A DNA stretch of 64,000 nucleotides from an uncultured bacterium (GCA_949284035.1 CASDUQ010000045.1:71170-135169); one strand, 5' to 3'; shown: positions 31,188 through 44,117, numbered from the stretch's first letter. Notes: generated by a model from the letters alone, not told the origin. Numbers and translations: made by a program.

Positions 31188-31730
31188 ATGAATATTGTTG
31201 AACCAATAAGAAAAAAGAAAGATTTGAAAAAAATTGAAAACATTCTGAAAAAACAAGGGCTTCGAGACTTATTACTTTTTACAATAGGCACCAATTGTGG
31301 ATTAAGAATTTCCGATATCTTAAACCTTAATGTCGGAGATGTAAAAAATAAAGACTATATAAACATTAAAGAGAAAAAAACTGGGAAATACAAAAGATTT
31401 CCAATAAATTCAAAATTAAAACCAATGTTTGCCAAATTCACAAAAGGACGAAATTTGGATGAACCACTGTTTTTATCCGTTTTTAAAAACAGAATGGAAA
31501 GAACTCAATGTTACAGAATAGTAAACGATGCTTGCAAAAAAGCCGGAATTGACTATAAAATAGGAACCCATACATTAAGAAAAACTTTCGGTTATCATCA
31601 TTATCAGAAATTTAAAGATGTTGTTATCTTACAAAAAATATTTAATCATTACTCTCCTCAAGTAACTCTACGATATATCGGAATTGATCAAGACATGATT
31701 GATGATAGCTATAACAATTTTATCCTCTAA
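31188..31730 (+). CDS. Minimal tyrosine recombinase, catalytic set intact
   Basis: R40 (GLRISD), K64, H128xxR131, H154, Y163; catalytic domain only, 180 aa. Confidence 0.95.
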   Translation: MNIVEPIRKKKDLKKIENILKKQGLRDLLLFTIGTNCGLRISDILNLNVGDVKNKDYINIKEKKTGKYKRFPINSKLKPMFAKFTKGRNLDEPLFLSVFKNRMERTQCYRIVNDACKKAGIDYKIGTHTLRKTFGYHHYQKFKDVVILQKIFNHYSPQVTLRYIGIDQDMIDDSYNNFIL

Positions 31731-31754
31731 TTTATATATAAGAGATAACTCAAC

Positions 31755-32014: not shown

Positions 32015-32542
32015 ATGACGCTAAGTTCTCCGATAAAAAATATATGCACTATAGAACAAATTAAAGAATTGTATAAAAAGAAAAACATGTTGAGAGATTT
32101 GTTAATGTTTGAACTCGGTATTAATACGGGGATGACATTAAAAAACTTGTTAAAATTAAAAGTTAAAGATGTAAAAAACAAATATTATTTAACTGATGGA
32201 ACAAAAACATTCCCATTAAATGAAAATATAAGAGAATTAATCTCTGAAATAACAAATAATAAAAAATCTTCCGAGTATTTGTTTAAAAGTAAATTTGGCA
32301 GATGCATGGACAGGGGAACTGTCTTTTATGCCTTTAAAGAAATCTGTAAAGAATTAGCATTACCAGATAGTATTTCCGTTGCATCCTGGCGAAAAACATT
32401 TGCATATCATCATTATCAAAAATACAGAGATTTGTCTTATTTACAGTGGTTATTTAATCAAACCAGAGTAACTGTAACTCTTCAATTTATTGAAGAAAAG
32501 GAAAATATGAATTTGAGATATCGGGAAGGGGTAATTCTGTAA
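32015..32542 (+). CDS. Catalytically dead tyrosine-recombinase paralog
   Basis: Aligns with 31188-31730 but has R>T41, a shortened Lys hairpin, H>A123, H>Q149 and Y>F158; TAATG overlap with the next gene. Confidence 0.85.
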   Translation: MTLSSPIKNICTIEQIKELYKKKNMLRDLLMFELGINTGMTLKNLLKLKVKDVKNKYYLTDGTKTFPLNENIRELISEITNNKKSSEYLFKSKFGRCMDRGTVFYAFKEICKELALPDSISVASWRKTFAYHHYQKYRDLSYLQWLFNQTRVTVTLQFIEEKENMNLRYREGVIL

Positions 32543-34053
32543 TGAGTATAAAAAAAATAATTATTCAAGCAGGCGGAAAAGGAACCAGATTAGAGGGGTT
32601 AACAAGAAACAAGCCTAAATGTCTGGTACCTGTAAACAATCTGCCGATTATTTTTTATGCATTTCAAAAATTTCAAGATGCAGAATTTACAATTATCGCA
32701 GACTACAAAACAGATGTTTTAAAAAAGTACTTACAAGCCTTCGGCTCTAAGTACAATTACAAAATAGTAAAAGCCGTTAAAAAAGGGACCGCTTCGGGCA
32801 TAAAAGAAGCCATCTCCGCATACTCCGATGATGAACCGTTTATGATAATGTGGTGCGACTTGATTTTATCTGATAATTTTGAAATTCCGGCAGCTAAAGG
32901 AAACTATATTGGAATTTCAAAAGATTTTGAGTGCCGTTGGTCCTATGTTAATAATCAATTTATAAAAGAACCTTCAAAAGAAAATGGTGTTGCTGGACTA
33001 TTTATTTTTGAAAATAAAAAATTACTGGAAAATGTTGCAGAAGAAGGGGCCCTTGTTGGCTGGCTGCAAAATCAAGGTATAAAATTTGACAGATTGGATT
33101 TATATGGTTCAAAAGAAATCGGCACACTTCTTTCTTATGCTGATAATAGCGCTGATGCGCCTCGATGCAGACCATTTAATTCAATGGAATTTAGTGGTGA
33201 TGTCATTATTAAGCGCGGCATTAATGAACAGGGGAAAAAGATTGCGGTTGATGAAATCGCCTGGTATAAGCATGTTAAAGAACTCGGCTACAATAATATC
33301 CCTGAAATATATGAATATGAACCTTTAACAATGAAACGTGTTAAAGGAAAGAATATTTTTGAGTATGATTGCTTAACCAAAACACAAAAACGTGGAATTT
33401 TGAGAAAACTCATTGAAGCTTTAAAAGAACTACACAATCTTGAACCGGCGCAGCCTGTAAATATCGTTGATGTAGAAGATAATTTTCTAAACAAAACTTT
33501 TGACCGGCTTGCAAAGGTAGAACACCTTGTTCCGTTTGCAGATAAAGAATTTATCAAAATTAACGGGAATTATTACAAAAATGTATTTTTCAACAAAGAA
33601 GAATTAACAGAGGCGGTAAAAACTGTTTACCCGAAAGAATTCAGACTTATTCATGGTGATTGTACATTTTCAAACCTAATGTTTGACACATACAATATGA
33701 AAGCAATTTTAATTGACCCAAGAGGGTATTTCGGCAAAACTAAATTCTACGGCGATGTGGATTATGATTGGGCAAAATTGTATTACTCATTGAAAGGCGA
33801 ATACGACCAGTTTAACCGTAAAAAATTCACTCTTGATATCAGAGAAAAAGATGTTGAAATGGCTATAAAGCCAAATAATTGGGCGGATATGGAAGAGTTT
33901 TTCTTTGACTGCCTGCCGGGGGTTAGCAAATACAAAATAAAACTTTTACATGCAATTATCTGGTTGAGTTTAACAACTTATGCGTGGGAAGATTACGACA
34001 GCATTTGTGGTGCTTTTTATAACGGAATAATAAAACTTAATGAGGTGTTGTAG
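32542..34053 (+). CDS. Nucleotidyltransferase-kinase (APH/choline-kinase fold) fusion
   Basis: IIQAGGKGTRL..KPKCL; LIHGDCTFSN, LIDPRG, GDVDYDWAKL. Confidence 0.85.
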   Translation: MSIKKIIIQAGGKGTRLEGLTRNKPKCLVPVNNLPIIFYAFQKFQDAEFTIIADYKTDVLKKYLQAFGSKYNYKIVKAVKKGTASGIKEAISAYSDDEPFMIMWCDLILSDNFEIPAAKGNYIGISKDFECRWSYVNNQFIKEPSKENGVAGLFIFENKKLLENVAEEGALVGWLQNQGIKFDRLDLYGSKEIGTLLSYADNSADAPRCRPFNSMEFSGDVIIKRGINEQGKKIAVDEIAWYKHVKELGYNNIPEIYEYEPLTMKRVKGKNIFEYDCLTKTQKRGILRKLIEALKELHNLEPAQPVNIVDVEDNFLNKTFDRLAKVEHLVPFADKEFIKINGNYYKNVFFNKEELTEAVKTVYPKEFRLIHGDCTFSNLMFDTYNMKAILIDPRGYFGKTKFYGDVDYDWAKLYYSLKGEYDQFNRKKFTLDIREKDVEMAIKPNNWADMEEFFFDCLPGVSKYKIKLLHAIIWLSLTTYAWEDYDSICGAFYNGIIKLNEVL

Positions 34054-34422
34054 GTGCTTGAATTTTCTTCATTAAATAAAACATGGATTCTGGATGTAGA
34101 TGGAACTCTTGTAAAACATAACGGTTACAAAATTGACGGTTATGACACCCTGCTTGATGGGGTTAAAGACTTCTTTGAACAGTTACCACTTAATGATAAA
34201 GTTATTCTTCTTACAGCAAGAAAAGAAGAATTTTTACCTGCTTTAAAAGACTTTTTAAAAAAAAATAATATCCGCTATGACTATTTGTTAACCGATATGC
34301 CTATGGGTGAAAGGATTTTGGTAAATGACAGAAAACCAAGCGGTTTGGATATGGCCTTTGCAATAAATAAGGATAGAGATAAAAACTTAAACATTGCATA
34401 CAAGATAAATAAGGAGTTATAA
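34054..34422 (+). CDS. Small capless HAD phosphatase
   Basis: ILDVDGTL, LLTAR, LVNDRKP. Confidence 0.8.
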   Translation: MLEFSSLNKTWILDVDGTLVKHNGYKIDGYDTLLDGVKDFFEQLPLNDKVILLTARKEEFLPALKDFLKKNNIRYDYLLTDMPMGERILVNDRKPSGLDMAFAINKDRDKNLNIAYKINKEL

Positions 34423-35412
34423 ATGACAACTTTATTAGAAAATCCAATTTCAATTCAAGAAAATTTAGATAGAAATTGTGCAATTCGTACAATTAACAGT
34501 GAAATAGATACAATAATTAAACTACGCGACAGTCTTGATAATTCATTGACTAAGGCACTTGATATTATGCAGGAAGCAAAAGGCAGAATAATTTTGACCG
34601 GAATGGGGAAATCAGGTCATATCGGCAAAAAAATTGCAGCATCTCTCGCTTCGACCGGGACACCATCATTTTTTGTACATCCTGCCGAAGCGAGTCATGG
34701 CGATTTGGGAATGATAACTGAAGATGATGTTGTCATTGCAATATCCAATAGCGGAGAATCCAGAGAACTTGTCGATATACTTAATTATTGCAAACGATTC
34801 GGTATAAAACTTATTGCTATTACAAAAAATCCCGAAAGTTCTCTGGGAAAAGCCGGTGATATAGTATTAACACTCCCCAACAACGGGGAAGCATGTCCTT
34901 TGGGACTTGCACCCACTAATTCTACAACAGCAACCCTTGTATTGGGAGATATTTTAACAGCAGGGTTAATTCAAAGAAAAGGGTTTACAAAAGCTGACTT
35001 TAATGAAAGACATCCCGGCGGAAAGTTAGGCTCTATATTAAAACGTGTATCTGATTTAATGCATACAGGCTCTGAAATGCCTATATTGGAAGAAAATTCC
35101 AATATGCAGCAGGTATTACTTGAGATGACTTCTAAACGTTTAGGCTGTGTTGGTTTTATAGACAATAACGGGAATTTAACGGGAATGCTGACTGATGGAG
35201 ATTTAAGACGCTGTTTGACTCCAGAAATATTAAACAAAAAGGCAGTTGAACTAATGACAAAAAATCCTAAAACAATTTCAAAGGATGTTATGGCATCAGA
35301 GGCCATAAAAATAATGCATGAAAAGAAAATTACAAATATTTTTATAGTTGAAAACAACATCCCAATCGGAGTAATACATATTCATGATCTTTTAAATAAT
35401 GGAGTCGTTTAG
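34423..35412 (+). CDS. kdsD: KpsF/GutQ/KdsD arabinose-5-phosphate isomerase (SIS + 2 CBS)
   Basis: TGMGKSGHIG, HPAEASHGDLG, LAPTNST, HPGGKLG, TDGDLRR. Confidence 0.9.
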   Translation: MTTLLENPISIQENLDRNCAIRTINSEIDTIIKLRDSLDNSLTKALDIMQEAKGRIILTGMGKSGHIGKKIAASLASTGTPSFFVHPAEASHGDLGMITEDDVVIAISNSGESRELVDILNYCKRFGIKLIAITKNPESSLGKAGDIVLTLPNNGEACPLGLAPTNSTTATLVLGDILTAGLIQRKGFTKADFNERHPGGKLGSILKRVSDLMHTGSEMPILEENSNMQQVLLEMTSKRLGCVGFIDNNGNLTGMLTDGDLRRCLTPEILNKKAVELMTKNPKTISKDVMASEAIKIMHEKKITNIFIVENNIPIGVIHIHDLLNNGVV

Positions 35413-36620
35413 TGAAAATATTTGAGTATAGAAAATCTGAAAATAAAAGTGTTGCCAAATTATTCGGATTTCCGATAATGGAGCAGACTTCTGATTATAT
35501 GACTACTGAAAGACATCAGAGTTTTTTTAAAGGTTTTGTTTCTACAATAAAAATTAATGATAAATACTCTGATTGCTCAAATAAAATAATAAAAATTCTG
35601 GGCAAAACTATAATAAGGCGAGAAGAAAAAAATAACTTTAGGACTTACTATATTTGGAACAAAGAATTCTGTAGATTTTCTTTACTTGATGAGTTTAAAA
35701 AACGTTACTTTAAGTATTTTGACAACCAGCATGATGATATTTATATATTACGTGCAAATAGCGGAGAAACATATCTTATTTTAACTTATATATTAGATAA
35801 ATTGATAGAAAAAAATAATAGTAAAAAGCCCTTATTAGTTGCCACCCTAAAATATCATGTTGATATGATTAAAATGATTTGTCCGGAAATTCCATACGTT
35901 TATATAGGGAAATTTAGATTAAAACTAAAGGACAGTAATTTTAAAATTGATAATCTTCACTTTTTTCTATTATTCAACCACAACCATTTTTTACAGGTAG
36001 AAAATCAAATCAGAAAAGGTGAATTAGGACAAATACACTATTTTTATTCAATTCTAAAATCTCTTGGTATATCAACTCAAGAGATAAATATGAGACATGT
36101 AAAGGTAAATATAGATGATGAAAACAAAATGCTTGATAAGGTCAAAAAAATCGGTCTAAATCTTAAAAAATTTGTTTTTTTAGCACCTGAGGCGCAATCT
36201 TGCAAATTATATGATGAAGATTTCTGGAGCGAATTAATAAATCAATTACAAACAATAGGATATGATGTGTTTGTAAATCTGGTTGATAATGAAATTAAGC
36301 TTAAAGAAACAATAAATTATAAGACTTGTTATCTGACATTTGCAGAAGCTTTTGCACTTGCAAAATGTTCAAAAAAAATTGTATCTTTAAGGAGCGGTTT
36401 TACAGAATTTCTACTTCAAACAAATGTGCCTATTGATGTCATATATACAAGATTTAGAAAGCGTCATTTTTTCGACGATTTGGATACATACCATGTAATA
36501 GCCGGATTTGGCTTAATGCAGCTACCATTTGTAGATAAATCTAAAATTCATGAATTCAATATGTATGAAATATCACCGAAACAATGTCTAAATGAAATTG
36601 TAAATGGATTAAATCAATGA
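35412..36620 (+). CDS. GT9-like putative glycosyltransferase, paralog 1
   Basis: NSGETY, FLAPEAQS, LRSGFTE; N-terminal K(I/L)(F/L)G repeats. Confidence 0.6.
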   Translation: MKIFEYRKSENKSVAKLFGFPIMEQTSDYMTTERHQSFFKGFVSTIKINDKYSDCSNKIIKILGKTIIRREEKNNFRTYYIWNKEFCRFSLLDEFKKRYFKYFDNQHDDIYILRANSGETYLILTYILDKLIEKNNSKKPLLVATLKYHVDMIKMICPEIPYVYIGKFRLKLKDSNFKIDNLHFFLLFNHNHFLQVENQIRKGELGQIHYFYSILKSLGISTQEINMRHVKVNIDDENKMLDKVKKIGLNLKKFVFLAPEAQSCKLYDEDFWSELINQLQTIGYDVFVNLVDNEIKLKETINYKTCYLTFAEAFALAKCSKKIVSLRSGFTEFLLQTNVPIDVIYTRFRKRHFFDDLDTYHVIAGFGLMQLPFVDKSKIHEFNMYEISPKQCLNEIVNGLNQ

Positions 36621-36630
36621 GGTTTCCAAA

Positions 36631-37758
36631 ATGTTATTTCAAATAAAAGAAACAGCCGATTATAAAAAAATATATATATTTTTTGGTCTTATTAGCTTTA
36701 AGATACTATATCATAATCCATCTATTGCTATAAGGATATTTGGAATTAATATACTAACTCTATATTTATTTAATGGAAAATTATTAATACAGTTAAATAT
36801 AAAAATTCCAATACCTTTTATTGATGATGAATTATTTAAAGCAAAATTTTTATATAATTGTGTAAAAGAAAATTACACAAAAGATTTTGATTGTATTTAT
36901 TCATTATGTGGATCTCCTTCAGGGGAAACATATATTATTTTAAATCTTTTAAATATTATTTTAAGAAAAAATTGTTCAAAACAACCTATATTGGTTGTTG
37001 ACAAAATGTTTAAGTATCAACTATGCAAACTATTTCAACCTGAAATCCCTGTAATTTTATGCAAAAATTTATCTTTTTTATATTTTAATAAGAAAAATTT
37101 TCATAAAATAAAAGGATGTAAAGTTTATAATTATTTTCCAACTCAGCATTATATAAAACAGGATATTTTGATAAATACTAAAGATGAACATTATTTTTCA
37201 TATATAGTCTCTAAGTTAGATTTAAATAGAAATTTATCTTTTAATAAACCCAAAATTTCTGATACAGCAAAACAAAATATTTCGTTATTTATAAAAGAAA
37301 ATAATTTAAAAAATTTTGTTATTATAGCTCCGGAAGCTAATACTTGTTCTGAAGGATGCATTAATTGGACTAAAATTTGCAATAAATTGCAAACTCTGGG
37401 ATATAAAGTTGTATTAAACATAACAGATATGAAGAATTATATTCCACATACGATACCGGTTCTATTAACATATGAAGAAATGTTTATACTCACCCAACAG
37501 GCCAGTGCATTCATAGGCTTACGAAGTGGATTGGTTGAAATTTTATCACAGTGTTCTGAAAACACTCCATTTTTCATATTCTATACAGATTTTCCTAAAA
37601 GGGGGGTATTACAAGCCATGAGCGCAGAAAAAGCATTGTCTGGTTTTACACTAAAAAAGCTTCCAAATGTTAATAAAAATAATATTACTGAACTCGTAGC
37701 AGAAGAAAATAGTATTGAAGAACTATTTAAAAAATTAATCAGAGCAAAAAATAATTGA
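36631..37758 (+). CDS. GT9-like putative glycosyltransferase, paralog 2
   Basis: PSGETY, IIAPEANT, LRSGLVE. Confidence 0.6.
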   Translation: MLFQIKETADYKKIYIFFGLISFKILYHNPSIAIRIFGINILTLYLFNGKLLIQLNIKIPIPFIDDELFKAKFLYNCVKENYTKDFDCIYSLCGSPSGETYIILNLLNIILRKNCSKQPILVVDKMFKYQLCKLFQPEIPVILCKNLSFLYFNKKNFHKIKGCKVYNYFPTQHYIKQDILINTKDEHYFSYIVSKLDLNRNLSFNKPKISDTAKQNISLFIKENNLKNFVIIAPEANTCSEGCINWTKICNKLQTLGYKVVLNITDMKNYIPHTIPVLLTYEEMFILTQQASAFIGLRSGLVEILSQCSENTPFFIFYTDFPKRGVLQAMSAEKALSGFTLKKLPNVNKNNITELVAEENSIEELFKKLIRAKNN

Positions 37759-37764
37759 GGCGTA

Positions 37765-38943
37765 ATGAGCGTGTTAAGAAACATATTTTCAAATAAAATT
37801 TATTGCAACAATAACATTTATAAAAAAATCTTTTTCAATGGTTTATTTTCTATTGAATTTAAAATGTTAGACTATTGTGTATTTTACAAAATATTTAATT
37901 TATCTTTTATGGAAAGAAGATTTAAACGAGGCGTTTCTTTATTTAAGTTGTTTAATACCATAAAATTTAAAACTTCTGAAAAAAGCACATTAGAATTCTT
38001 AAAGCCAATCCTAATTGAATATGTAAAAAATCAAACCTTACAAAAAAATTTCTCATTAATACATTTCATAACAAGATTAGGTGAAACATACTTGCAAATG
38101 TACCATTTAGAAGAATATCTAAATAATAATAAAATTAAAAATCCAATTTTTATCTCCCAATTTAGCAACCTTAAATATATATGTAATATGTTTTATCCTA
38201 AAATAAAATTCATAACTATTCCACAAGTTTTCTTTGAAATGTGTTTTTCTACTGAACTAAAAAATTATAAACATGCAGGCTGTTATTATTTTTTACCTAT
38301 TAATAGAACTCATTTGATTAATGTTGAAAAACAATTAAACAATAATAACCAGATACTTTTTTATGAAGAACTAAAAAAATCATTAAAAATTAAAAAATCT
38401 AATTTGATAAATTACCCAATACTCAGTGTGAATGTTAAAACAAAAAGTGATAATATCATTAAACAATTGAGATTAAAAAAGCGTTTTGCATATATTATTC
38501 CAGATGCTCAATCAAACTCTTCTATGTCGTTAAACTTTTGGAATAAACTTTGTAAGACTTTAAACGTTGACTATAATTATGATATTTTTCTAAATACATT
38601 ACCTCAAGGTTTTCAAAATAAGTATAAACACCATCATATATCAATTGAACAAGCAAAATATATTGCATCAAAAGCTGATATTATTATTGGCATAAGATGT
38701 GGCTTGTTGGATATAGTTACGAATAATTCTTCAGATATTTTTGCAATTTATCTCCCTTTTAATAATAGAGCACCTGAATTTCCTTATTTATCCGCAGAAA
38801 AAGTAATGGGGGCCTTTTCACTAAAGCAACTACCCAATATTTGTAATAAGCATCTTTATGAATATAATGCAGAAATTTATTCTGAAAGATACATTTTAAA
38901 TGAAATTTTAAGTCTCATTTCAAAAAAAGAGGTTGAACATTAA
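37765..38943 (+). CDS. GT9-like putative glycosyltransferase, paralog 3
   Basis: RLGETY, IIPDAQS, IRCGLLD. Confidence 0.6.
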   Translation: MSVLRNIFSNKIYCNNNIYKKIFFNGLFSIEFKMLDYCVFYKIFNLSFMERRFKRGVSLFKLFNTIKFKTSEKSTLEFLKPILIEYVKNQTLQKNFSLIHFITRLGETYLQMYHLEEYLNNNKIKNPIFISQFSNLKYICNMFYPKIKFITIPQVFFEMCFSTELKNYKHAGCYYFLPINRTHLINVEKQLNNNNQILFYEELKKSLKIKKSNLINYPILSVNVKTKSDNIIKQLRLKKRFAYIIPDAQSNSSMSLNFWNKLCKTLNVDYNYDIFLNTLPQGFQNKYKHHHISIEQAKYIASKADIIIGIRCGLLDIVTNNSSDIFAIYLPFNNRAPEFPYLSAEKVMGAFSLKQLPNICNKHLYEYNAEIYSERYILNEILSLISKKEVEH

Positions 38944-40034
38944 TGAATATAGTAAAATTTGAAAACTTAAGACAAGAATCTAAAATAACATTTTTGAATG
39001 GCTTATTAAGTTTATATAAATTTAAATCTATTCTTTGGGAATTAAAATTTTTAAAATTGCCTATTCTAGCTTTTTATAAATATCATTATAGCAATAAAAA
39101 ATATAAATCTATTCTTTTATTTTCAAAACCTAAAATAAAAAAACGTATAGAAGATGAGTGCCTATTTCATATAGTAAATCAATCTCCACAAGAGTATGAC
39201 AATATTGTTTTTATCCGTTCTGGATTAGGGGAAACATATTTATTGAACATATATCTTAAACAGATTTTAGAATCTCTTAATATTGAACTCGAAAATACTT
39301 GTTTTATCGGTCTAAGGGATACTTTTAAAGAAATTTTTCACCAATACAATCCAAATGTAATTTATAAAAAAATTGATTTAAATTGGGATTATCTTTGTCT
39401 TTCATGCGATAAACAAAAATACCAATATAATGGGAAAAATATTTATTTTTATATTGAAAAAAATTATATATACAATCTAATGAATAATTACAAAAACAGT
39501 ACAAATAACACGCACTTTGTTTCTAATATATGTAACTTTTTCAATATTAATAAAAATTCTGCTCAAATAGCAAAATATGTCCCATCAATTTCTGAAAGAG
39601 ATAAAGCAATAACATATTTATATAAAAATAATATAAATATTAATAATTTTATTTTTATTTCTAAAAATGCTATATCAATCGAAAATTTTTCTGATGCTTT
39701 TTGGAATGATTTAGAACACTATTTGAAATTAAAAGGGTATGATATAGTTTACAATCAAAATGAATTCTCTATTACGGAAGCAAAGGTTATTGCAAGTTAT
39801 TCTAAAGCAATTATTGCATTACGTTCTGGTTTTCTAGAAACATTGTCAGAATTAGATAAAAAATTTTATATTCTGAATACAGCACTAACAATGAACAATA
39901 TTAATGCTGAGAGAATAAAAAAACTATACTCTTTAAAGTTTTATCCAAACGTAAAACAAGAAAATATTTTTGAATATGACAATGAAACTATGGATGAAAA
40001 TGAAATTTTATTAGATATATTGAAAGGTGTTTAA
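38943..40034 (+). CDS. GT9-like putative glycosyltransferase, paralog 4
   Basis: GLGETY, LRSGFLE. Confidence 0.6.
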   Translation: MNIVKFENLRQESKITFLNGLLSLYKFKSILWELKFLKLPILAFYKYHYSNKKYKSILLFSKPKIKKRIEDECLFHIVNQSPQEYDNIVFIRSGLGETYLLNIYLKQILESLNIELENTCFIGLRDTFKEIFHQYNPNVIYKKIDLNWDYLCLSCDKQKYQYNGKNIYFYIEKNYIYNLMNNYKNSTNNTHFVSNICNFFNINKNSAQIAKYVPSISERDKAITYLYKNNININNFIFISKNAISIENFSDAFWNDLEHYLKLKGYDIVYNQNEFSITEAKVIASYSKAIIALRSGFLETLSELDKKFYILNTALTMNNINAERIKKLYSLKFYPNVKQENIFEYDNETMDENEILLDILKGV

Positions 40035-41088
40035 TATGAAATTATTTGAAAAAATAAGCGACCAAGCTGCCCCCCCCCCGAACGAACAAGTTAAAATTTT
40101 CGGAATAAATTTTTATGAAAAATATTATAAAAATGGGAAAGAAGTAAGAAAATTTTTATATAACATTTTTAAAATAATAACATCACCCACTAGCAAATCT
40201 TTTTATATTGTAGGGATAAAAATTTTTTATAAAAAATATACAAATAAACAAGAACTTAACTTACTTTATGAAATTATAGGAAACATAAATTTTACTAGAG
40301 AAGAATTAAAAAAATATCTACATAATATAATTCAAGAAACTATAATTGATGAAACACGTATGGCGAATGCAGTAGCTTATTTGCATTCTAAAGTATTTCC
40401 ACAGTTTAAGAATTGTAATATAGGTAAGGATCTTGTGATTGTAGGAACAGGTCCGACTTTAAATAATTATAAATTCAATAAAAAGTTAATACATGTTGGC
40501 TTAAATCGGGCATTTCTGGCCGATAATATCAAGAAGCTTGATTATACATTTCTTATTCATTACAACAAAACATCTTCTACATATATAGAAGAATTGTCAA
40601 AGTATGATTGTATTAAGTTTTTTGGACAATATCATTTTAAAGATATATTGGATTGGAATATTCCTAATATATATGCAAATGCGAAGAATATATATAGATA
40701 TTTTATTGATAGAACATTATTACACCCAAATATTGAAGTTGAAGGTTTGTATGATCCTGGTTCAATAGCTTTTTCAGCTTTACATTTTTCTTTATATACA
40801 CATCCAAAAAGAATATTTTTGGTTGGTTGTGATTGCACTCAAAATGGTTATTATGATAACTCTGTTGAACAGGTCAAATGGTTGGGACTGGCTAATACTT
40901 TAAAAAGTTATCCTATATTAAAAAACTTCGCACAAATTTACTATCCAGATATAGAAATAATTTCAGTAAATCCAATTGGATTAAGAGGGATATTCAGAGA
41001 TGTATATACAAAAAGTTATGTTACTGATAATCCAGAATTATTTATAGGACTTGAAGATAAAATTGAGTATTTTGAAGACATAGTATAA
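40027..41088 (+). CDS. Maf/DUF115-like transferase with in-frame C10 tract (likely start ATG 40036)
   Basis: KDLVIVGTGPTL, VGLNRA, SIAFSALHFS..IFLVGCD; GCT GCC CCC CCC CCG. Confidence 0.7.
   Translation: MFNMKLFEKISDQAAPPPNEQVKIFGINFYEKYYKNGKEVRKFLYNIFKIITSPTSKSFYIVGIKIFYKKYTNKQELNLLYEIIGNINFTREELKKYLHNIIQETIIDETRMANAVAYLHSKVFPQFKNCNIGKDLVIVGTGPTLNNYKFNKKLIHVGLNRAFLADNIKKLDYTFLIHYNKTSSTYIEELSKYDCIKFFGQYHFKDILDWNIPNIYANAKNIYRYFIDRTLLHPNIEVEGLYDPGSIAFSALHFSLYTHPKRIFLVGCDCTQNGYYDNSVEQVKWLGLANTLKSYPILKNFAQIYYPDIEIISVNPIGLRGIFRDVYTKSYVTDNPELFIGLEDKIEYFEDIV
40070..40079 (+). repeat. C10 homopolymer (slippage tract)
   Basis: Ten consecutive C in a very AT-rich gene. Confidence 0.95.
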
Positions 41089-41103: not shown

Positions 41104-41868
41104 ATGAGTAAAAAACACAAAATAATAGCTATAATACCAGCGAGGTATGCATCAAGTCGTTTCCCAGGTAAACCACTTGCTGATATTTGTGGGAAACCTA
41201 TGATTTGGTGGGTTTATGAACAAGTGAAAAAAGTAAAAGATTTTGATGGTATAGTAGTTGCGACTGATAGTGATATTATCATTGAAGAATGCAACAAATA
41301 TAATATAAAAACAATTAAGACTTCAACTAAACATCCTACACATATCAATAGATTAAAAGAAGTATCTGATAACATCTCATCAGATTTGTATGTTTGTATT
41401 TGTGGAGATGAACCTTTAATTGATCCAGAGACTATTAAGTCTGTTATTCCCACGAAAGAAGAAATTAACTCATCTTTTTATGTTGGAGCTTTAATGAGAG
41501 AATTTAGTGAACCAACAGAGGTAATTGACCCAGCAAATATTAAAATAACAACAAATGATAATAATTATTGTGTATCTCTATCAAGAAGCCCAATACCTTT
41601 CCCTTATAAAACAATTCAGTTTAAATATAAAAAAATTGTTGGCGTTGAATGTTACTCAAAAGCGACTTTAGACTTTTTTGCAACTACAGATGCAGGATGT
41701 ATTGAAAAAATCGAGGATATAACTCTTTTAAGATTTTTAGAAAATAGAATACCTATAAAATTTACTCTAGTTGAAACAAATGCTTTATCCGTCGACACAC
41801 AAAGAGACTTAGAAAAAGTTCGACAAATTATAGAACATAGAGAAAGAGGTAATTATGAGACAAATTAG
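41104..41868 (+). CDS. kdsB: KdsB-family ulosonate cytidylyltransferase
   Basis: IIPARYASSRFPGKPLADI.GKPMI, VATD, GDEP, VDTQRDL. Confidence 0.8.
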   Translation: MSKKHKIIAIIPARYASSRFPGKPLADICGKPMIWWVYEQVKKVKDFDGIVVATDSDIIIEECNKYNIKTIKTSTKHPTHINRLKEVSDNISSDLYVCICGDEPLIDPETIKSVIPTKEEINSSFYVGALMREFSEPTEVIDPANIKITTNDNNYCVSLSRSPIPFPYKTIQFKYKKIVGVECYSKATLDFFATTDAGCIEKIEDITLLRFLENRIPIKFTLVETNALSVDTQRDLEKVRQIIEHRERGNYETN

Positions 41869-43465
41869 CTTATTGGATTGTACATTACGAGATGGCGGCT
41901 TTTTAAACGACTGGAATTTTAGTAAAAATACAATACTTAGTATTTTTAGACGTCTTGTTAAAGCTAATATTGATATAATAGAAATAGGTTTTATTAATGA
42001 AAACTATTGCTTTGATGAAAATAGAACAATTAACCCGGATACAAAATCTTTTGATAAAATTTTTGGAAATGAGAAAAAAGGAAATTCATTGATTGTCGCA
42101 ATGATTGATTTAGGAACCTGTTCAATTGATAAAATTTCAGATAAGAAAGAGTCGTTTATAGACGGTATTCGCGTTATTTTTAAGAAAAAAGACATGCATT
42201 CTGCAATTAATTTTTGCAAACAATTACAAGATAAAGGATATAAAATTTCCGTGCAGCCTGTCTCAATTACGACTTATAGTGATAGGGATATGTTAGATTT
42301 GATTGATTTAGTAAATGAATTAAATCCCTATGCAATGTCATTAGTTGATACATATGGATTATTATACAAAGACAGATTGTTAAAATATTTCAGTTTACTT
42401 GATAATAATCTTAATTCTAATATTAGTATTGGTTACCACGCACATGATAATTTTAAATTGTCATTTGCCAATGCTAGCGAATTGCTTAGAATTCAGACAA
42501 GAAGAAAACTTATTATAGATTGTTCGTTATACGGAATGGGAAAATCTGCCGGAAACCTTAATACTGAACTTATTTCTGATTATTTAAATAAACAATACGG
42601 AAAAAACTATGATATATTAGAAATAATTAATGCTATTGAACTTGAAATATTAAGATTTTTAAAAGATTGCAAATGGGGGTATCAATTGCCGCTTTATGTT
42701 TCTGCAATTAATGAATGTCATCCAAATTATGTAAAATATTTAGGAACTAAAAATACAATATCTATGAAAGAAATTAGTGAAATAATAACTGAAATAGATA
42801 AGGATAAACGTTTATCTTTTAACAAGGAACATATAGAACAACTTTATTTAAAATATCAAAGTAAAAATCTAGATGATTCGAAAGAATATGAAAAACTTTC
42901 TAAAATATTCAAAGATAAAACTATATTACTTATAGGCCCCGGCAATTCAGTTAAAAAGGAACAGATAAAGATAAAAGAATATATTAATAAAAATAATGTT
43001 ATTACTTTTGGAGTAAATCATATTAATACTATTTTTGATATAAATTATTTATTTATAAGTAATGTAAAACGTTATGACCAATTTATTGATTTTTATTCTA
43101 AAAATCAAAATGGAGAGATTATAATCACCAACAATATCAAGTCTGGACAGGATAAATCTGATTACATTTTAAATTATTCCAGTTTAATTAATCCTAACAG
43201 TATTATCGGAGAAAATTCTTTATATTTGTTACTAAAAATATTAATTAAACTTAAAGTTAAAAAGGTTGTTCTTGCAGGCTTTGATGGTTTTTCAAAATTT
43301 GCACCGAATTATTATGACAATAATTTTCAGTTTTTTAATAAAATTGAAAATACAGATGAAATTTCAAAAGCAATTATTGAACAATTGTCTGATTTCCAAA
43401 AATATATAAAAATCGAATTTTTAACGAAATCCAAATATCAAAATAAGGAATTAATTAATGTATAA
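41855..43465 (+). CDS. HMGL-like (DRE-TIM) aldolase fused to a Maf/DUF115-like domain
   Basis: LDCTLRDGG, LVDTYG, YHAHDN, YGMGKSAGN; C-terminal ILLIGPGNSV..FGVN, LAGFDGF. Confidence 0.8.
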   Translation: MRQISLLDCTLRDGGFLNDWNFSKNTILSIFRRLVKANIDIIEIGFINENYCFDENRTINPDTKSFDKIFGNEKKGNSLIVAMIDLGTCSIDKISDKKESFIDGIRVIFKKKDMHSAINFCKQLQDKGYKISVQPVSITTYSDRDMLDLIDLVNELNPYAMSLVDTYGLLYKDRLLKYFSLLDNNLNSNISIGYHAHDNFKLSFANASELLRIQTRRKLIIDCSLYGMGKSAGNLNTELISDYLNKQYGKNYDILEIINAIELEILRFLKDCKWGYQLPLYVSAINECHPNYVKYLGTKNTISMKEISEIITEIDKDKRLSFNKEHIEQLYLKYQSKNLDDSKEYEKLSKIFKDKTILLIGPGNSVKKEQIKIKEYINKNNVITFGVNHINTIFDINYLFISNVKRYDQFIDFYSKNQNGEIIITNNIKSGQDKSDYILNYSSLINPNSIIGENSLYLLLKILIKLKVKKVVLAGFDGFSKFAPNYYDNNFQFFNKIENTDEISKAIIEQLSDFQKYIKIEFLTKSKYQNKELINV

Positions 43466-44117
43466 AGTAGTTATTTTTGACATAGATGGCACATTACTAG
43501 ATGCAACGGAAGGTATTTTATCATCAGTAAATAAGACAATAAATTATTTGAAGCTTAAAAAACTTTCAAAAAAGGAAATGCTTGATTTTGTTGGTCCTCC
43601 TATTCAAAATTCATATAAAGCAATTTATGAAAATAATGATATTAAAGCACAAGAATTTGCAAATATTTTTAGAAAAGAATACGCTGGAGGTGATGTATAT
43701 AAGGCAAATGCTTATGATGGAATAGAAGAATTACTGTCACTTCTTAAAAATAATGGGTATAAATTAGGTGTAGCAACATATAAACGTCAAGATTATGCAA
43801 ACGGATTAATAATTCATTTCGGTTTTGATAAATATATTGATTTAATTTGTGGTTCAGATAATGAAAATAAGCTTAAGAAATCTGATATTTTAAGAATTTG
43901 TATAAATGGACTAACAACCAATAAAAGCGAAGTTATTTTTATTGGAGATAGTTATCATGATGCAGAGGCCGCAAACAATTTAGGTATAGATTTTATTGGT
44001 GTAACGTACGGATTTGGTTTTAAAACAAAATATGAAATCCAAAAATATAACCCCGTACTTTGTGCAGATAACATAGAAGAAATTATTAAGTATTTTAAAT
44101 TTGTAAACGCTCTATAA
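43458..44117 (+). CDS. HAD-family phosphatase
   Basis: FDIDGTLLD, VATYK, IGDSYHD. Confidence 0.9.
   Translation: MYKVVIFDIDGTLLDATEGILSSVNKTINYLKLKKLSKKEMLDFVGPPIQNSYKAIYENNDIKAQEFANIFRKEYAGGDVYKANAYDGIEELLSLLKNNGYKLGVATYKRQDYANGLIIHFGFDKYIDLICGSDNENKLKKSDILRICINGLTTNKSEVIFIGDSYHDAEAANNLGIDFIGVTYGFGFKTKYEIQKYNPVLCADNIEEIIKYFKFVNAL

Follow-up and report, generated by a model that had tools for sequence, protein, structure and literature searches.

A stretch of 64,000 nucleotides from an uncultured bacterium (GCA_949284035.1 CASDUQ010000045.1:71170-135169), here called the window, carries at 41104-44117 the genes of a KdsB-like cytidylyltransferase, a fusion of an aldolase-type DRE-TIM barrel with an MptE/Maf-fold domain, and a haloacid dehalogenase (HAD) phosphatase. 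With a probability of about 0.5, this trio is a copy of a conserved cassette that leads, by way of aldolase and phosphatase, to a cytidine monophosphate (CMP)-activated 3-deoxy-2-ulosonic acid resembling 3-deoxy-D-manno-octulosonate (Kdo) or sialic acid, and does so without a phosphoenolpyruvate (PEP)-dependent KdsA/NeuB synthase. We infer what reaction takes place and in which direction, that the substrate is phosphorylated, and what product and acceptor are involved. CMP activation of the aldolase product is favoured over a supply of CMP-Kdo because KdsB-like and PseF/NeuA-like enzymes interchange in the slot before the fusion, because three Gram-positive carriers (L027, L028, L070) are without KdsA, and because just one of 18 related loci has the isomerase KdsD in the vicinity of the trio. 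The host is taken to be a relative of gut Melainabacteria, since its GroEL is 91-92% identical to proteins of Gastranaerophilales metagenome-assembled genomes (MAGs).

The trio consists of the following parts:

41104..41868, plus strand: KdsB-like cytidylyltransferase, 254 aa, a second, diverged paralogue (PF02348, NF003952)
41855..42670, plus strand: metal-dependent barrel of DRE-TIM (HMGL-like) pyruvate-aldolase type, aa 1-272 of the 536-aa fusion (PF00682)
42668..42904, plus strand: helical linker of the fusion, aa 272-350 (model and conserved residues)
42905..43465, plus strand: MptE/Maf/sialyltransferase-fold nucleotide-binding domain of the fusion, aa 351-536 (fold comparison)
43458..44117, plus strand: HAD-IA (C1-cap) phosphatase, 219 aa (PF13419)

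The coupling of these genes, proposed in a first-pass annotation of the window, is borne out by three open reading frames (ORFs) at exactly 41104-41868, 41855-43465 and 43458-44117 that overlap by 14 and 8 nt. They form the 3' end of a run of twelve closely packed genes beginning at 32015. An AGG-containing ribosome-binding site precedes the KdsB-like gene, and the interval from the HAD gene to ldh showed no terminator-like site.

Domain content and proposed route

Residues 4-246 of the fusion match the HMGL-like family PF00682 with 71.3 bits (gathering cut-off 29). An AlphaFold 2 (AF2) model of the whole protein, with a mean predicted local distance difference test (pLDDT) of 90, shows a TIM-barrel fold that Foldseek matches with probability 1.0 to 3dxi, DmpG, isopropylmalate synthase (IPMS) and HMG-CoA lyase. 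The best PDB match of the fusion profile is 3dxi, a 'putative aldolase N-terminal domain' from Bacteroides vulgatus (E 8e-37), followed by the 4-hydroxy-2-oxovalerate aldolases DmpG (1nvm, 5.7e-16), HsaF and AmnG. In the alignment, R12, D13, H195 and H197 of the fusion fall on the DmpG Arg that stabilises the enolate and on the DmpG metal ligands (Asp, HxH), and all four are invariant across 66 homologues. The relation to BphI/DmpG is distant (phmmer E 8e-6 to 1nvm). 3dxi itself, the protein BVU_2661, is the closest solved structure, matched over aa 3-319 and sharing the LDCTLRDGGY and WG motifs; it is, however, only ~22% identical, has Thr in place of the family-invariant Y276, and is a structural-genomics entry with no assigned function. 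The linker, aa 272-350, is helical in the AF2 model and contains the family-invariant residues W274-G275-Y276 and H289-P290-x-Y292 (45 and 66 homologues). Its placement appears similar to that of the post-barrel helical domain of DmpG-type aldolases.

The phosphatase matches HAD_2 (PF13419) with 130.3 bits against a cut-off of 23.8, and its catalytic motifs I (FDIDGT) and IV (GDSYHD) are intact. The nearest NCBIfam models are those of phosphoglycolate phosphatase and PpaX, all under cut-off. Genome-wide, the KdsC model TIGR01670 has matches on contigs C13, C30 and C39 only, and the HAD of the window is not among them.

The cytidylyltransferase matches CTP_transf_3 (PF02348) with 134 bits and retains the CTP-binding and Mg motifs IPARYxSSRFPGKPL, GDEP and SVDT. 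It lies over the cut-off of the KdsB subfamily model NF003952 (211.7 vs 193) and under that of the kdsB equivalog TIGR00466 (126.7 vs 155.2), where the housekeeping copy on contig C34 reaches 201.6. Identity between the two proteins is 34% overall, 41% over the CTP-binding part and 31% over the part aligned to the Kdo-binding C-domain; these domain roles, with the location of Kdo binding at domain level, follow PMC3149649. The stretch SLEQLRAL of the housekeeping KdsB (L003:1489-2220, G000:C34) corresponds to DITLLRFL in the window's copy and to xDLxR(F/Y) in seven relatives of cassette type, and GIYGY is likewise replaced. As far as sequence comparison goes, these changes are a possible specificity signature in the sugar-binding domain.

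On this basis, pyruvate bound at the metal site of the DRE-TIM domain would be joined to an aldehyde, probably a sugar phosphate, to form a 4-hydroxy-2-keto acid. The HAD-IA enzyme would take off the phosphate and the KdsB-like paralogue would form the CMP derivative. A stand-alone MptE/Maf-like protein (40027-41088), possibly together with GT9-like genes upstream of it, could then put the sugar on a surface glycan such as lipopolysaccharide, O-antigen or capsule. The fused MptE-fold domain would serve as a conserved nucleotide-binding part of the synthase step and not as a glycosyltransferase.

Gene contexts of the fusion

In a scan of one genome per species, the fusion was found in at least 576 species genomes. 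Of 8 sampled metagenome or MAG contexts, 7 have the CTP_transf_3, fusion and HAD genes side by side; among the trio contexts are contigs labelled Muribaculaceae or Melainabacteria as well as loci with genes of teichoic-acid type (Glyphos_transf, LytR). Contexts were counted within 6 kb, with hidden Markov models (HMMs) built from the neighbours, in the best 80 genome loci, that is, the most query-like of the at least 576, and the counts are uncorrected for relatedness. A CTP_transf_3 gene occurs in 18 of the 80 (15 with HAD, 9 with a stand-alone MptE-like gene), a thiamin diphosphate (ThDP) enzyme in 60 (31 with HAD), and both in three. The HAD gene is present in 15/18 CTP_transf_3-type loci and in 29/57 ThDP-only loci, and this frequent partnership is consistent with a phosphorylated intermediate. 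Four cultured carriers belong to the ThDP setting: Murimonas intestini DSM 26524, Otoolea muris DSM 111138 and [Clostridium] aminophilum DSM 10710, each with a HAD gene as well, and Clostridium thailandense PL3, which has none there.

The window belongs to the first of these settings. In a quick LG+G4 tree of 74 fusions, its protein falls into a 99%-supported clade of 11 rows, all with cytidylyltransferase context: the window, nine rows from Melainabacteria, Gastranaerophilales and related MAGs, and one MAG labelled Fusobacterium. Over the whole tree the context switches at least four times, and one Clostridia subclade holds closely related, near-identical fusions in either context. All invariant residues of both fusion domains are identical in the two context classes.

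Ahead of the fusion, the cytidylyltransferase slot is occupied in some loci by a KdsB-like enzyme (~245 aa) and in others by a short PseF/NeuA-like one (~220 aa), and this varies even between closely related Melainabacteria. Because either type can fill it, the conserved link appears to be that of a CMP-ulosonate synthetase beside an aldolase, not Kdo metabolism as such. The Gram-positive loci L027, L028 and L070, which have a KdsB-like gene in the cassette, come from genomes with no KdsA over cut-off, the best DAHP-synthase matches being 130-133 bits vs 314; L028 is also without a true NeuB.

Both types of downstream enzyme use 2-keto acids, which points to a 2-keto acid as the product of the fusion, destined for CMP activation or for a ThDP enzyme. 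The simplest common reading is that the fusion, with the HAD where found, makes a hydroxylated 4-hydroxy-2-keto acid that is CMP-activated in the window and used by ThDP enzymes elsewhere. We advance a broader proposal more tentatively, holding it somewhat less probable than the cassette reading: that a PEP-independent CMP-ulosonate route is widespread in gut bacteria, that the MptE-fold domain prepares the aldehyde, for example by (pyro)phosphorylation, and that the same enzyme feeds ThDP-dependent long-branched sugars.

Several observations weigh against the proposed CMP-ulosonate route. The position of the general base His21 of DmpG is Phe16 in the window fusion and Tyr in most homologues, and the score against the 4-hydroxy-2-oxovalerate aldolase equivalog TIGR03217 (54.8 bits) falls far short of the cut-off of 286; because of these two points, the aldolase chemistry is read from the superfamily. 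A phosphorylated intermediate cannot be universal, since 27 ThDP-only loci have no HAD gene within 6 kb. The three loci with both partners indicate that the ThDP and CTP_transf_3 settings may not be alternatives. Relatedness and the choice of query-like loci may have shaped the context counts, and absences of genes in MAGs are weak evidence because MAGs may be incomplete. Since the genome has a full Kdo pathway and the operon its own KdsD, plain CMP-Kdo synthesis may be all that the KdsB-like gene serves. Finally, we found no biochemical description of the fusion, the cassette, BVU_2661 or the family in the literature.

Some individual loci deserve separate mention. At L027, L099, L024 and L074, a CTP_transf_3 gene and a ThDP enzyme are found together in the neighbourhood of the fusion, a co-occurrence for which neither simple model accounts; L027 and L099 have the ThDP gene and an epimerase gene in divergent orientation to CTP_transf_3-HAD-fusion. 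Two contigs from Gastranaerophilales/Melainabacteria, L023:49-6367 and L025:3431-8614, contain two diverged fusion copies each. Those of L023 score 363 and 611 bits against the window protein and are accompanied by four cytidylyltransferase genes (two KdsB-like, two short), and L025 has two short cytidylyltransferase genes in divergent orientation. Such duplication suggests more than one product per locus. The fusion of L019, the MAG labelled Fusobacterium sp., is nearly identical to that of L018 from Melainabacteria (branch lengths 0.03-0.05), and the first 266 bases of L019 share 73% nucleotide identity with the recombinase region 31488-31731 of the window. These matches point to mis-binning of the contig or, alternatively, to a recent transfer of an entire recombinase-headed glycan operon.

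Kdo supply and other readings

Upstream of the trio, the same run of genes contains:

34423..35412, plus strand: second KdsD/KpsF arabinose-5-phosphate (A5P) isomerase, same operon (TIGR00393, 319 bits)
35412..40034, plus strand: four family-less genes with a faint GT9 signal, candidate glycosyltransferases (weak PF01075)
40027..41088, plus strand: stand-alone protein of MptE-like/DUF115 type, 353 aa with ATG at 40036, a candidate for transferring the CMP-activated product (sub-threshold PF01973)

The genome, which is 99.9% complete, was searched as a whole for Kdo and NeuB genes. All matches to PF00793 and PF03102 fall on other contigs, and the window is indeed free of KdsA and NeuB, as had been annotated. 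KdsA lies on contig C37 (TIGR01362, 392 bits), the housekeeping KdsD adjoins KdsC on C13, and the true KdsB is on C34 (TIGR00466, 201.6 bits). There is no true NeuB in the genome; the sole match, of 30.7 bits, is in a 353-aa ORF of the DAHP-synthase family on C48 (true NeuB 237-277 bits). The module can thus be called KdsA-independent within the window but not genome-wide, and the suggestion of a non-canonical route to Kdo is weakened by the outcome of a check proposed with it, a search for kdsA elsewhere. With a complete canonical set at hand, no substitute route to ordinary Kdo is needed. The annotated logic of synthase, phosphatase and cytidylyltransferase is supported in part, by the trio's occurrence across phyla, by the retained R12, D13, H195 and H197, by the Gram-positives without KdsA and by the ThDP enzyme, another user of 2-keto acids, in fusion loci without a cytidylyltransferase, but not in the form of KdsA-independent Kdo synthesis.

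Because the KdsD and KdsB-like genes of the window are second copies in the genome, a KpsF/KpsU-type arrangement must be considered. Here the two copies would boost CMP-Kdo for a capsule or O-antigen, on top of housekeeping KdsA and KdsC, and the aldolase fusion and HAD would make some other keto-acid substituent. E. coli group 2 capsule loci have just such kpsF/kpsU duplicates, and the presence of KdsA, KdsC, KdsD and KdsB elsewhere in the genome, the second KdsD within the operon, and the score over the NF003952 cut-off all fit. Against it, KdsB-like genes adjoin the fusion in Gram-positives without KdsA, a PseF/NeuA-like enzyme takes the same slot in sister loci, and the gene itself falls short of the kdsB equivalog cut-off and shares just 34% identity with the housekeeping copy. 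A Kdo transferase of KpsC/KpsS or WaaA type is, by Pfam, absent from the operon. Only one of the 18 related loci has KdsD beside the trio, and elsewhere the isomerase goes with an NTP-transferase/kinase gene. We regard this arrangement as unlikely, at perhaps one chance in a handful.

The distribution of KdsD also bears on the substrate. It was found within 7 kb of the trio in only 1/18 CTP_transf_3-type loci, and five Gram-positive carriers have no full KdsD over cut-off; two of these have SIS-only proteins, which might isomerise A5P. For these two reasons A5P from KdsD, put forward earlier as the input, cannot be taken as conserved: it is a possible substrate in this organism, not a general substrate of the fusion family. 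In the window, KdsD forms a gene pair (32542-35412) with an NTP-transferase/APH-kinase fusion of 503 aa, which recurs in a Dorea MAG (L091:368-2469, 522 bits). Directly 3' of the kinase fusion in L091 is a SIS-domain gene, weakly like the window KdsD (70 bits, shorter ORF). Kinase fusion and SIS isomerase may be a separate mobile module, perhaps for a nucleoside diphosphate (NDP)-pentose, that does not feed the aldolase.

The C-terminal part of the fusion is recognisable by fold more than by family. For residues 270-536 no Pfam family is over threshold, and nothing usable appears at E up to 10; against PF01973 the domain scores 15.5 bits (cut-off 34.6), and 5/34 fusion relatives match this family at E <= 1, the best at 5e-5. 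Modelled alone with AF2 (pLDDT 87), it aligns in VIA-align with Maf (5mu5, Z 12.0, 172 aligned, rmsd 3.8) and equally with the archaeal MptE pyrophosphokinase (HPPK; 8sd5, Z 12.0, 169 aligned, rmsd 3.4), then with SteA (Z 11), Cst-I (2p56, Z 10), GT29 sialyltransferases (Z 9-9.7) and thiamin pyrophosphokinases (Z 7-7.7). Foldseek agrees on the fold. The term 'Maf-like' thus holds for the fold but not in Pfam. Because this fold is common to CMP-sugar transferases and ATP-using pyrophosphokinases, it leaves the function of the domain undecided.

One reading, which the annotation had suggested, is that this domain is the glycosyltransferase of the CMP-sugar, so that a single protein would make and install the sugar. 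The similarity to Maf and to GT42/GT29 sialyltransferases (Z 9-12) speaks for it, and the domain carries GPG and GFDG motifs at the sites of the sialyltransferase nucleotide-binding motifs of CstII. It has no invariant His after GFDG, the site of the catalytic base in CstII, which counts against a transferase. Pyrophosphokinases match the fold just as well. The invariant residues of the domain (G363, N388, N403, R406, T425, N427, G475, D477, G478, Y528) recur unchanged in 52 proteins of ThDP context whose surroundings, out to 6 kb, contain no cytidylyltransferase gene. A separate MptE-like gene goes with the cytidylyltransferase loci. Since the residues are kept where no cytidylyltransferase is nearby, a role as CMP-sugar transferase is, from the sequences, improbable. 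We consider it more likely that the domain acts as a (pyro)phosphokinase on the aldehyde partner or senses a nucleotide in the synthase step.

In the ESM Atlas, look-alikes of the C-domain (aa 272-536; 42668-43465) score below 0.8 and serve as leads only. One such cluster, at 0.76, is annotated as MptE-like together with 'WaaZ_KDO_III' (PF27901), a low-score hint that a Kdo transferase belongs to the MptE-like fold family; this would fit the stand-alone gene at 40027-41088. A search with the C-domain alone gave 913 representative clusters, nearly all in the fused form of ~530 aa. Proteins of ~305 aa were considered as a split, stand-alone form and set aside, as the two examined start near the ends of ~1 kb contigs and are probably truncation artefacts.

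The stand-alone protein of the window scores 24.6 bits against PF01973 (E 2.5e-5), under the cut-off of 34.6, and has GTGPT and VGCDC motifs. It had been described as a relative of the fused domain, starting at 40036; the relation stands in fold and motifs, but direct sequence kinship was rejected as not significant (BLASTP E 0.5; hhalign probability 0.25%). Genes of this type are present in 9/18 CTP_transf_3 loci vs 1/57 ThDP-only loci (Fisher p 3e-6, uncorrected for relatedness). As they follow the cytidylyltransferase context, the stand-alone gene is a better transferase candidate than the fused domain, and its fold family includes Maf and the CMP-sugar-using sialyltransferases. We consider the protein a candidate for transfer of the CMP-activated product. 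Of the four GT9-like genes before it, the first alone has a PF01075 match in Pfam (E 0.008), and for the other three Pfam gives nothing usable even at E up to 10. Relatives of these genes lie upstream of the trio in four Gastranaerophilales loci, directly so in L021, L026 and L036; L021 also has KdsD.

Least credible to us is that the fusion and HAD supply a hydroxylated 2-keto acid for a use other than CMP activation, as in acyl-branched sugars, with the cytidylyltransferase acting on an unrelated substrate: the frequent ThDP partner of the fusion, often with HAD, the three loci with both enzymes and the precedent of an aldolase paired with a ThDP enzyme (PMC9306805) favour it, but an HMM search finds no ThDP enzyme in the 64-kb window, the window fusion's own clade is entirely of cytidylyltransferase context, and the cytidylyltransferase and fusion genes overlap by 14 nt. 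The CTP_transf_3 enzymes are, in addition, known mainly for 2-keto-3-deoxy sugar acids.

Known pathways and meaning

The cassette shares with the Kdo pathway KdsD-KdsA-KdsC-KdsB (and KpsF/KpsU) the order of steps, from a phosphorylated 3-deoxy-2-ulosonate through dephosphorylation by a HAD enzyme to activation with CTP. Its activating enzyme is of the KdsB subfamily, and a KdsD paralogue is in the operon. It differs in the condensing enzyme, which has a DRE-TIM metal aldolase fold, with pyruvate as the probable donor, and not the PEP-using DAHP_synth_1 fold. Its phosphatase is a HAD-IA enzyme with C1 cap and not of KdsC type, its cytidylyltransferase is under the kdsB equivalog cut-off, and it occurs in Gram-positives without KdsA.

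The routes to sialic acid and 2-keto-3-deoxynononic acid (Kdn), with NeuB/NANS, a NANP-type HAD, a CMP-synthetase and a sialyltransferase or Maf, have a similar trio of synthase, HAD-IA and CTP_transf_3. In both, a transferase of sialyltransferase/Maf fold is at hand, near the trio in our case, and the activating enzyme of sister loci is PseF/NeuA-like. In contrast to these routes, the window genome has no true NeuB-family synthase, and the trio is without genes for a 2-epimerase, an aminotransferase or an acetyltransferase.

For the loci of ThDP context, acyl-branched sugars offer the closest comparison. In Pectobacterium, the BphI-like aldolase ErwI has been proposed from gene context to join pyruvate and acetaldehyde to 4-hydroxy-2-oxopentanoate, and the ThDP enzyme ErwE accepts this compound in vitro and joins it to a ketone that mimics a keto-sugar; analogous aldolase-ThDP schemes have been given for caryophyllose and gastriose (PMC9306805). 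The fusion resembles ErwI/ErwE systems (erwiniose, caryophyllose) in placing in a glycan locus a DRE-TIM pyruvate aldolase, proposed to provide a 4-hydroxy-2-keto acid to a glycan enzyme acting after it, and in the ThDP enzyme found beside it in 60/80 loci. Unlike them, the window has no ThDP enzyme, the fusion comprises an additional domain of MptE fold and mostly has a HAD as partner, and by Pfam the operon has no aldehyde dehydrogenase of the type that partners DmpG/BphI, such as the acetaldehyde dehydrogenase ErwJ/BphJ.

New in this work are the split of the fusion family between two contexts with shared invariant residues, the interchange of cytidylyltransferase types, and the complete canonical Kdo pathway in the genome. 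To our knowledge, all known bacterial pathways to Kdo, sialic, legionaminic and pseudaminic acids use PEP-dependent KdsA/NeuB-type synthases. Genome mining for Kdo- and sialic-type sugars depends on genes of this type. If a CMP-ulosonate is made from pyruvate, a class of acidic surface sugars would be missed by current annotation in hundreds of gut species, in groups that include Melainabacteria, Lachnospiraceae, Muribaculaceae and Treponema. The link to the ThDP-context loci amounts to a testable common product class, and it would put a name to the aldolase not yet accounted for in many branched-sugar loci. On the broader proposal made above, a single enzyme family would head two different classes of unusual surface sugars.

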